Below, one piece after another: positions 56,078 through 58,787 of a stretch of DNA of 64,000 nt. Positions within the stretch are counted from its first letter, which is position 1; the number at the start of each line of letters is the position of its first letter. The DNA is from Convolutriloba macropyga. Taxonomy: Eukaryota. The translations under genes were made by a program, and so were the position numbers. The notes under the pieces are model-generated. The model was not told the origin of the DNA and did no database searches. It saw only the letters and a program-made list of their open reading frames with translations. Location: contig NC_134472.1 of NCBI RefSeq assembly GCF_964194025.1, forward strand, positions 310,001 through 374,000, in the 5' to 3' direction.

Positions 56078-58787
56078 ATGGAAGACGGAGAAATCAATAA
56101 GTCACCAGCAGTATACGAAGTAAAAAACGTAAGTTACACAATGTTTCTTTTCATTTTACTTTGCTTAACTCTATTCCTACCTGTAGCAACTGATATTGAG
56201 TCTGAAAGTGTTCAACTTATTTCAAATTTAGAAATACTCTTTGAATATAACGATTCTCACCCACACTTCATAAAATATGTCGTAAATAGAAATAAATGTC
56301 TACCTGAAGAAATTCCGTACCTTAAATTAATAGACCCTCCTGAAAAGCAATTAATTTGGTCAAAACGCAACGTCCATATGCCACTATCACTGAATAAAGA
56401 CCAATTCTTTAAAGAAAAACTTACTGATAAGAAAGCATTTTTTTCAAAAGTAGAATATTTTATAACCTACATAGGAAACCAAATTCGTTCTCTTCAGTTT
56501 CTTAAACTTGTTGCTATAATACCTCTTGCACTTCTCTGTGTTATAACTGCTTGCTATTCAAAATATTTGATCTTTTTTATATTTCTTGCATTATTAATCT
56601 TAACGTCTTTCACTGACGCCAGACCAATTGAAAAGATGAGTATCTATGAAAACACAGCTCCTAACCTTCATGTTAACCACTTTGACTGCTCAAAAATGAT
56701 CTCAAACCAGATGTCTTCTCTCAACAAAGTAGCACATTGCGAAATTCCCCCTGATAAAATTTGTACTAATCAAGCACGAGTCACTCTCTACCAAAAAAAT
56801 TATAAAGTTAAGCCAGAAGCAACTATGTGTAAAGCAACCCAACAACAATTACGTGGGTTTTGCGATTCTTTTGACTCTAGCGGCATAGATGACAGACATA
56901 ATACTATTACTACTTCAGTTAAGCTTGATGCTCAGAAATGCAAGCTTGCAAAGGAAAAAAAATAATAAAGCTTTCCCCTTCTTCTTGTTCAGTAGAATTC
57001 GACTTTGACAAATCTTTGTTCTCAAACTTTAACTCAGGCGATGTTGGAACTGGAAACAATGAATGTAACTCCCGAGGTTGGATTACACATTACACTTATG
57101 AAACATATATGCAAAATGTTAGCCTGAATGTAAACCTTAGAGATGGCACAGTTAATAACTGGCAAAATATACCTCTACCTTGTCCTTTATCAGCCGGAGG
57201 CTGCTATTCTACATCTACTGATCCATTTGCATACACTTGGGATGAACCCAATAATTTGTCTTTTCACTATAATTCGCACTTTTGACGCTCAAATGATTAA
57301 AGCTAATGACAAATACTACATAGTAAAGGATCCTGAACTTACTTCAGCTCAGTCAGATTTCGACTTACAAAGCTTTATGTTCCAAGTTTATAATAAACCA
57401 CAGTCTTTATGTAGTCATCCACAAATAGTATATCCTACGCCATATGATTCTCTATATATTAGTCTTCGAGACGGTTTCGATATGAACACTGGAGAACCTA
57501 TTCACAAATATAACTCTGATACCGGTGCTATCACGCTTAAAAATAAATATTATTCCAGTGATAACAAAACAGTTGATACAAAGCATTTTCAAATTTATGA
57601 AAATATTGATTTCGAAGCCCATCTTGGAACAAAAATTGACTATTTGCACTTTAATAACCTTCGGCAACTTCAAACTTCTACTCTAGAGCTATTAAGAAAC
57701 GACTGTGAATTAGAGCGCTCAACTATTCTCAACACTTTAATGATTTCTCATGAAAATCCGCGTTTAGCTGGATATACCTTAACAAGAAACAGATCTATGT
57801 TTCTCAAAACAAATGGCAATGTTGCCTGGCTATATAAATGTCCTGAGTTTCATTCACCCTTACAAATTCTTAGTAAGTGCTATAATCGAATACCAATTCT
57901 TTATGAAGATGAAATTCATTTTGTTGATCCCATTTCTAGACAAACCTTCATTGAAGCCGAAGAACAATCGTGCTCTGATAAACATTCAAACTTATTTCAA
58001 CTAGAAGTTGACGATGACAATTCATGGGTTGAACTAACCCCACAAATAACAAAAGTAAGAGGACCTGCACTCTTTAAACCACACATAGTCATTCAGCATA
58101 TTGCAAATATAATTACTGCAAGCATTCAGGCTTCTATCTACACATATAAAGAAATGATGGCATTCTGGAATTCAATAAATTTCAACTCCAATATGAAAGG
58201 AGTTCTCAAACATTTTACTAAGTCATTGTTAGATAGCAGAGAATCATTTTCAAATATTTCAGGCACGAATTATTATAACTCTAGAACTATTTATCTAGAT
58301 TCATTCATTTCATCGGACTTCTTTAATAATCAATTTGTTGAAACCTTTGGTAAAATACAATATATAATTGAGCAATGCGGAATATTCTTTGCCGCTTTCT
58401 TATTCATTAAACTACTCATCGACATAGTCTTATGCTTAATTCGAGCAATGCAAATTAACAAAAATTACAGATGCATCTATTCATTTTGGTAAAGCACTCT
58501 TTGCTGCCACATTTGATTTAATGTCAGTTCCAATCCTGACTTCTATCTATCAAGCAACTAATTGAGAGATTAATAACACTGATGAAAATAGAGAACCAAC
58601 AATGCAAGTTCCAAAATCTGATAATGCTATTACTAGAGAACGAGTTATTCAAATTCCACCTTATACAGAGAGTACAGGCTTACATGCTGTAAGATTTGAG
58701 AATAAAAGTGGTTATCCAAACCTACATGATGAGAATAATAAAGACGAAAATAGAAACGATCATAACGTTCCTACGTCTCCAGTATAG
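56078..58787 (+). pseudogene. env: env: chuvirus-glycoprotein-like fusion protein, frameshifted
   Basis: Hydrophobic leader; Cys-rich ectodomain (HFDCSKM..SLNKVAHC, ENPRLAGY..GNVAWLYKC..CYNRIPI..FVDPISR); C-terminal TM segment GIFFAAFLFIKLLIDIVLCLI. After a frameshift and a stop the tail continues to 58787. Confidence 0.8.

Follow-up and report, generated by a model that had tools for sequence, protein, structure and literature searches.

A gB-like Envelope Gene and Additional Open Reading Frames in an 18-kb Ty3/gypsy-type Element of Convolutriloba macropyga

The gene at positions 56078–58787 of the window, the whole 64,000-nucleotide stretch of Convolutriloba macropyga DNA analyzed here, most probably serves as env in an 18-kb endogenous retrovirus-like element of the Ty3/gypsy type, of which this copy is dead and the family multi-copy. 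Profile matches and the predicted structure of a close relative support its assignment as a class III, gB-like fusogen of the family that contains the chuvirus glycoproteins.

Envelope Protein: Fold, Leader, and Tail

By comparison with unbroken relatives, env 56078–58787 lies in four frame pieces, with frame changes near 56.95, 57.26, and 58.46 kb and one in-frame stop near 58.56 kb. The motifs quoted in the preliminary description were found where it had placed them in the broken gene: HFDCS...SLNKVAHC is within the piece 56078–56962; PRLAGY, GNVAWLYKC, and CYNRIPI...FVDPISR are within 57134–58489; and IPPY and YPNL are within 58566–58784. The predicted regions of the gene are as follows.

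56078–56620 (+): leader, ~180 aa, with hydrophobic blocks at residues 12–42 and 136–184, the second of which could span the membrane twice
56621–58360 (+): putative class III (gB/Monjiviricetes-type) fusion ectodomain, with two frameshifts
58361–58787 (+): anchor in the membrane plus tail, interrupted by one frameshift and one stop; IPPY and YPNL present, TSPV at the C-terminus

With the longest env piece as the query, 15 proteins among 1453 candidates were recovered. The best relative, P0001, is an unbroken protein of 898 aa that is 87–92% identical to the env pieces (92% over the longest) and represents a cluster of 243 members; six of the 15 members listed (40 read) are full length, at 897–902 aa. 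The Pfam family PF24664 (Monjiviricetes_fusion) matches the env pieces with E 1e-5, below the cut-off, and 8.8e-26 (90.5 bits, above the cut-off of 27), and it matches P0001 with 2.3e-38 (132 bits, same cut-off). In the Atlas comparison, PF24664 clusters were found for the P0001 env at 0.95–0.96.

The structure was modeled for P0001 and not for the window copy, from a 38-sequence alignment. The model has a mean pLDDT of 67.6, with ectodomain blocks mostly at 80–95 and low values in the leader and tail, and includes a long central helix (residues 512–557). All PDB matches listed are herpesvirus gB, the best with a Foldseek E of 4.1e-12. Domain IV of gB aligns over 163 residues (Z 7.7, rmsd 3.6) and domain II over 80 residues (Z 6.7, rmsd 2.3), and the best overall match has Z 8.4 with rmsd 5.8 over 187 residues; global TM-scores are low (0.14–0.25), so the gB fold match holds domain by domain. 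A sequence comparison of P0001 with solved structures gave five matches, and no E value under 0.4. The predicted viral structure that matches best is that of Tacheng tick virus 4 (1.9e-31); next come a chu-like virus (2.4e-31), a xinmovirus (3.1e-30), one entry that has no name, and then a qin-related virus (5.6e-29), and the glycoproteins (G) of the named viruses are 13–16% identical to P0001. With the G proteins of Jingchuvirales, Xinmoviridae, and qin-related viruses (PF24664) and with herpesvirus gB, the window env has in common a profile match above cut-off, the cysteine pattern, class III domains, and a C-terminal anchor; it differs from them in its very low identity, its extra leader of ~180 residues, and its being encoded by a retroelement.

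The fold check proposed in advance thus came out as predicted, the model of the relative being gB-like class III and neither baculovirus F nor retroviral Env being its best match. No F-type env family was matched in Pfam by the env pieces or P0001, and the furin site (R-x-K/R-R) is absent in 12 of 12 env proteins scanned. A baculovirus F or F-type errantivirus env is ruled out by the class III fold together with these two results. The earlier contrast between chuvirus-type and F-type env therefore stands as regards class III and PF24664, but a specific affinity to chuviruses is not supported, because the xinmovirus and qin-related glycoproteins match about equally.

The long leader, previously put at ~190 residues, was recovered with its hydrophobic segments at ~180 residues, and HFDC follows it at residue 201. 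It is specific to the P0001 family. All six of the full-length members listed of the P0001 cluster retain it, whereas none of the remaining 14 rows in alignment A1 has it. Residues 1–45 have a weak likeness to the signal region of one sister family (z 3.2; 2 of 300 shuffles), and the middle of the leader (residues 46–135) has no match among nine other leaders. In a working protein, signal peptidase would cut off the leader, which would then perhaps be a small second membrane protein.

Tails were compared in a set obtained from 63 near-full-length relatives, of which 29 remained under 60% identity and 27 had a tail of at least 25 residues (P0002 and P0029 being left out). In shuffle tests that treat the sequences as independent and ignore shared ancestry, YPx-hydrophobic occurs in 19 of 27 tails (shuffled mean 1.9; 0 of 1000 shuffles), YPxL in 7 (mean 0.5; 0 of 1000), P[ST]AP in 6 (mean 0.17; 0 of 1000), C-terminal [ST]x[VIL] in 6 (0.66; 0 of 1000), and PPY in 6 (0.95), whereas strict PPxY, in 2 of 27 tails versus 1.0 in shuffles (281 of 1000), is not enriched. 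The proposed resemblance of IPPY and YPNL to late domains was accordingly retained for the YPx-hydrophobic, YPxL, P[ST]AP, and PPY forms, but IPPY is not a strict PPxY. The YxxPhi motif is an endocytosis and sorting signal, and there is somewhat less than an even chance that the tail motif is an ordinary signal of this type and that Env has no part in budding. The presence of YxxPhi in 23 of the 27 tails, the fact that only 7 have leucine as the final residue of the motif, the lack of PPxY enrichment, and the possession by Gag of its own PTAP fit such a signal; the proline that follows the tyrosine in 19 of 27 tails, P[ST]AP in 6 where 0.17 are expected, and PPY in 6 speak against it. Judged by sequence, the motifs could be ESCRT late domains, of the classes described in the available text of PMC2958808, or an endocytosis signal. 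In 5 of 12 profiled env proteins there is a second hydrophobic stretch 3′ of the anchor, so the tail could face the lumen. In the openly accessible literature searched, nothing relevant turned up on late domains in the env tails of chuviruses or retroelements.

Open Reading Frames Flanking env

Between pol and the 3′ LTR, env is accompanied by the following features.

52003–55124 (+): spacer, 3.1 kb, without long ORFs; CCAAT at 54575, TATTTAA at 54625, (TC)n at 54720–54793
55125–55454 (+): ORF A, 109 aa, ending in a stop that overlaps the start codon (ATG) of ORF B
55451–55762 (+): ORF B, ~103 aa, with one internal stop; its stop is 3 nt 5′ of the ATG of ORF C
55766–56077 (+): ORF C, 103 aa, predicted small alpha/beta fold; the ATG of env follows its stop directly
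59107–59804 (+): post-env ORF pieces, a Ser/Thr-rich part followed by a small domain and a coiled coil
60160–60516 (+): ORF D, ~110 aa, a stop-to-stop frame without ATG in the window copy
60711–61034 (+): ORF E, 107 aa
61063–61185 (+): 40-aa hydrophobic ORF, possibly a small membrane protein

The 3.1-kb spacer upstream of ORF A is a candidate internal promoter, judging by its sequence elements; env promoters inside the element are present in the Oikopleura Tor elements, according to the available text of PMC4402516. Contig cover is lower over the spacer (52003–55124) than anywhere else in the element.

ORFs A, B, and C are mutual paralogues (z 12–20 versus shuffles), as are D and E (z 23); the values for ORF B are 12–18. 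Across the two sets, A resembles D (z 6.4) and C resembles E (z 4.0), the other cross pairs not being significant, and the upstream and downstream sets are probably related. Codon position 2 is the most and position 3 the least conserved in four of four paralogue pairs, a pattern that is a mark of protein-coding genes. A candidate sixth paralogue at 59850–60170 was rejected (z at most 1.3), and a derivation of the env leader as a copy of the small ORFs was ruled out (z at most 1.5). ORF C has 34 relatives that are 64–91% identical, 19 of them exactly 103 aa long, and its model has a pLDDT of 83.8. The best fold matches of this model reach Z 6.3 (KTSC-family and a designed protein), with none at Z of at least 8; the best viral structure has E 0.12, the best Atlas match is at 0.87 with no family, and there is no Pfam match. 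None of these matches is significant or assigns ORF C to a family, and their lack does not by itself make the fold a new one.

The layout of the A-B-C-env junctions suggests termination-reinitiation, a process that occurs in RNA viruses. In one relative, P0256, the frame reads through from ORF C into the env leader. It is unlikely that the small ORFs, env, and the post-env ORFs are together a captured segment of a negative-strand RNA virus in which the small ORFs were viral structural or accessory genes. The compact, virus-like packing of the genes would fit such an origin, as would the possibly related ORF, although the likeness is weak, that lies 3′ of env in the distant locus L001; set against this are the failure of ORF C to match any viral profile or fold, the relatives found for it being solely the 64–91% identical copies of its own family, the origin of A/B/C and of D/E by duplication, and the absence of an env relative from the viral contigs searched. 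The ORF in L001, which lies at 2541–3137 (+) and 3′ of an env relative that is itself distant, is laid out like 59107–59804, with a low-complexity start, a small domain, and a coiled coil. Its likeness to the post-env ORF is weak (pairwise E 0.004 over 36 aa), and of 52 candidates in a search with it, 2 were confirmed, namely the ORF itself and a single close relative.

Origin of env and Class of the Carrier

Relatives of env comprise 838 cluster representatives at E of at most 0.001, and the 14 nearest clusters are 37–50% identical. Because hundreds of unnamed relatives are thus far closer than the named viruses (13–16%), a specifically chuviral origin of env is not supported. We infer that retroelements have carried this env for a long time and did not acquire it recently from a known chuvirus. 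A quick, unfinished tree of 30 unnamed env relatives has deep, long branches; it includes no named virus and is therefore silent on chuvirus ancestry. The preliminary description had offered independent capture or a retroelement reservoir of the fusogen, and of these the reservoir fits better and is already published (PMC13524379, in the part available). A separate, lineage-specific capture of a chuvirus glycoprotein by a gypsy lineage, in parallel with Anakin in mosquito BEL/Pao elements, is decidedly unlikely. It would agree with the chuvirus and chu-like G proteins being the two best viral structure matches and with the capture of chuvirus G by Pao that is on record (PMC7642597), but xinmovirus and qin-related G are within 1–3 orders of magnitude at an equal 13–16% identity, the nearer unnamed relatives form a deep radiation, and gypsy-borne env of this type is found across many phyla, with an ancient origin argued (PMC13524379). 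Among viral contigs, 7 env and 11 RT pattern matches were obtained and none was confirmed, and a metagenome scan confirmed 3 of 87 stretches, all shorter than 4 kb and without pol. The env relatives P0019, P0023, and P0032 are on contigs of 12–13 kb, the size of a whole element or of a negative-strand virus genome.

The LTR element that carries env is complete, extends from 44273 to 62338 (18,066 bp), and is flanked on both sides by a 4-bp target-site duplication (TSD), AAGG. Its remaining features are as follows.

44273–45055 (+): 5′ LTR, 783 bp, TG...TA ends, with the TSD AAGG directly 5′
45058–45074 (+): PBS-like sequence, starting TGG, 2 nt 3′ of the 5′ LTR
45317–46540 (+): gag, frameshifted, with a capsid-like part, one CX2CX4HX4C knuckle, and one PTAP
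46553–47062 (+): aspartic protease (Asp_protease_2, E 0.005, below cut-off)
47535–47876 (+): TARG1/OARD1-type macrodomain, in pol between protease and RT (Pfam Macro, above cut-off)
48164–49528 (+): reverse transcriptase (RT, YIDD) and RNase H, interrupted (RVT_1, 3e-18)
50032–52002 (+): bridge, integrase (H2C2 and rve), and Ser/Pro-rich pol tail, interrupted
61524–62338 (+): 3′ LTR, 815 bp, TG...TA ends, with a purine-rich tract 5′ and AAGG 3′

Over 783 aligned columns, the two LTRs are separated by 36 substitutions (K2P 0.048), in addition to 32 gap positions, and both start with TG and end in TA, not CA. The tRNA-end form of the PBS is missing from the PBS table in supplement 1 of PMC13524379, and no tRNA genes were found in the 64-kb window. 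Just 3′ of the PBS, in the 5′ leader, there is a 38-bp tandem repeat of 3.9 copies (45068–45216). The gag match to Retrotrans_gag (E 0.003) is below the Pfam cut-off, and RT_RNaseH matches with 2e-15 when stops are read as X, RNase H lying immediately 3′ of the RT.

The order of domains in pol is protease, macrodomain, RT, RNase H, integrase. The best solved relative of the RT is that of Ty3 (3.7e-25), followed by foamy virus (1.3e-14) and the next polyprotein (1.5e-14), and no BEL RT is among the 12 sequences matched in this solved-structure comparison; for the integrase, foamy virus (6e-19) scores ahead of Ty3 (2e-10). The two LTRs, the 4-bp TSD, the PBS-like sequence, the purine-rich tract, the protease-RT-RNase H-integrase order, and the Ty3-nearest RT are all as in Ty3/gypsy elements, and assignment of the carrier to the Ty3/gypsy type, made from similarity scores of the RT, is supported; the integrase scores and the TA ends of the LTRs speak against it. 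The gag and pol had been described at the outset as Gypsy-type, and the full LTR element with this pol order and a Ty3-like RT supports this. That the carrier belongs instead to BEL/Pao (Anakin-like) or to another LTR group (Troyka, Odin/lokiretrovirus) is highly improbable, since, even though BEL and Troyka have an identical order of pol domains (PMC12440569, in the part available) and foamy virus is the best match of the integrase, the Ty3 RT is ahead by ten orders of magnitude, RNase H adjoins the RT directly, the Pao peptidase family is absent from the Pfam matches, and Troyka, which has CG..CG ends, a 3-bp TSD, and no env (PMC12440569), is ruled out by the TG start and 4-bp TSD of the window element. 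Pfam matches of the broken gag and pol pieces at E of at most 0.1 include no Pao-type protease or gag families.

Both gag and pol are broken many times, and this copy is therefore dead. Contigs from four of four sequencing runs (three studies, two coded organisms) span all 30 bins of the element in many variants, which indicates that the family has many copies and that env and the small ORFs are part of it. The element family is multi-copy, with unbroken env copies; the linkage of env to a gypsy pol is seen in one copy alone, that of the window.

The macrodomain matches human TARG1 structures with E 4e-18, other macrodomains reaching only 0.02. In the alignment with TARG1, the catalytic Lys/Asp pair is identical (Lys in LITK, Asp in CGLD), and from its sequence the domain looks like an ADP-ribose-removing enzyme domain. 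Some retrotransposon polyproteins have macrodomain annotations, so the macrodomain, taken by itself, is possibly not a novelty. Fish epsilon-like ERVs are on record with macrodomains (PMC4977317, available text), and for gypsy elements and other retrotransposons nothing on point was found in the openly accessible literature searched. Between the protease and the macrodomain, 47063–47404 (+) resembles a decayed dUTPase fold when judged by eye, and it has no Pfam matches.

Several other features are present in the window outside the element. The first part (100–23000) is a long satellite-like array with higher-order spacings of ~245–490 bp, and degenerate repeats at 62700–64000 have recurring motifs like those of this satellite. 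At 26023–27063 (+) there is another reverse transcriptase fragment (RVT_1, 1e-7), non-LTR-like by eye, followed at 27615–28313 (+) by an intronless SH3-SH2-SH3 (Grb2-like) ORF of 232 aa with strong Pfam matches, which is consistent with an animal as host. A decayed Polinton/Maverick-like cluster at ~33600–41200 (−) includes an adenovirus-type protease (E 5e-6) and an integrase (E 8e-4), as well as capsid-like and ATPase-like frames seen by eye. Two runs of N (42356–43429), an assembly gap or masked repeat, lie ~0.8 kb 5′ of the 5′ LTR.

Relation to Known Elements and Significance

Chary and Hayashi (eLife 2026; PMC13524379) describe, in the part of their report available, 1512 env-bearing Ty3/gypsy elements, many with a Chuviridae-like gB-type env, of which 114 were found with a mosquito Pao G bait, and argue for an ancient origin. 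These HSV/gB-type "errantiviruses" share with the window element the LTRs, the gag-pol-env order, a Ty3/gypsy pol, and a class III env, and also an N-terminal membrane segment that replaces a simple signal peptide and the lack of a furin site. The window element differs from them in its length of 18 kb, in an env that begins 4.1 kb 3′ of pol with three ORFs between, in the macrodomain in pol, and in its five orphan ORFs. The main text of PMC13524379 contains none of the terms macro, accessory, late domain, cytoplasmic, and ESCRT. The search reported there allowed a pol-env gap of 500–1000 nt or scanned 3–5 kb downstream, so the layout of the window element, with env 4.1–6.8 kb 3′ of pol, was probably outside its reach.

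The mosquito BEL/Pao element Anakin (PMC7642597, available text) is likewise an LTR element with a chuvirus-like class III glycoprotein, whereas the carrier in the window is Ty3/gypsy-like and its env is 13–16% identical to named chuvirus G; PMC10084718, as far as its available text goes, found only fragmentary gypsy associations. In Oikopleura Tor4b (PMC4402516), Env is furin-cleaved, unlike the window env, and the internal promoter, present in Tor elements, is a prediction here; the available Tor text has no mention of a macrodomain ("macro"). Fish epsilon-like ERVs (PMC4977317) and bdelloid rotifer LTR elements, in which additional ORFs are described (PMC5408684), are precedents for the macrodomain and for extra ORFs, but their element classes differ, and a class III env with a paralogous small-ORF array is not reported in the available texts for either.

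In working copies, Env would be a trimeric membrane fusogen that allows particles of Gag-Pol to move between cells, probably from soma to germline by analogy with Drosophila gypsy. A single sub-genomic RNA would serve for ORFs A-B-C-env by stop-restart coupling, the YPx-hydrophobic, PTAP, and PPY motifs of the tail would recruit host sorting or ESCRT factors, and the macrodomain would counter host defense by removing ADP-ribose. It is possible, and put forward only tentatively, that the element stands for a "complex" gypsy lineage, built like a complex virus, with a polycistronic sub-genomic A-B-C-env cassette under stop-restart coupling, a new small-protein family in five copies, an env polyprotein from which a companion membrane protein is released, an Env tail that recruits ESCRT and contributes to budding, and a TARG1-type anti-ADP-ribosylation enzyme in Pol.

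Since earlier publications already combine a gypsy pol with a fusogen of the chuvirus/gB-like kind, the element adds a family and not a principle; it is larger and richer in genes than the published elements whose texts were available. The macrodomain in pol, the five orphan ORFs, and the family-specific leader were not found in the literature searched, and the first two look new. These extras suggest that gypsy elements with an env can be as complex as retroviruses, and that present search filters exclude such layouts. From the enrichment of the tail motifs comes a testable idea of how gB-type retroelement particles may exit from the cell, and the presence of the macrodomain hints that ADP-ribosylation acts as a defense against retroelements in an invertebrate.
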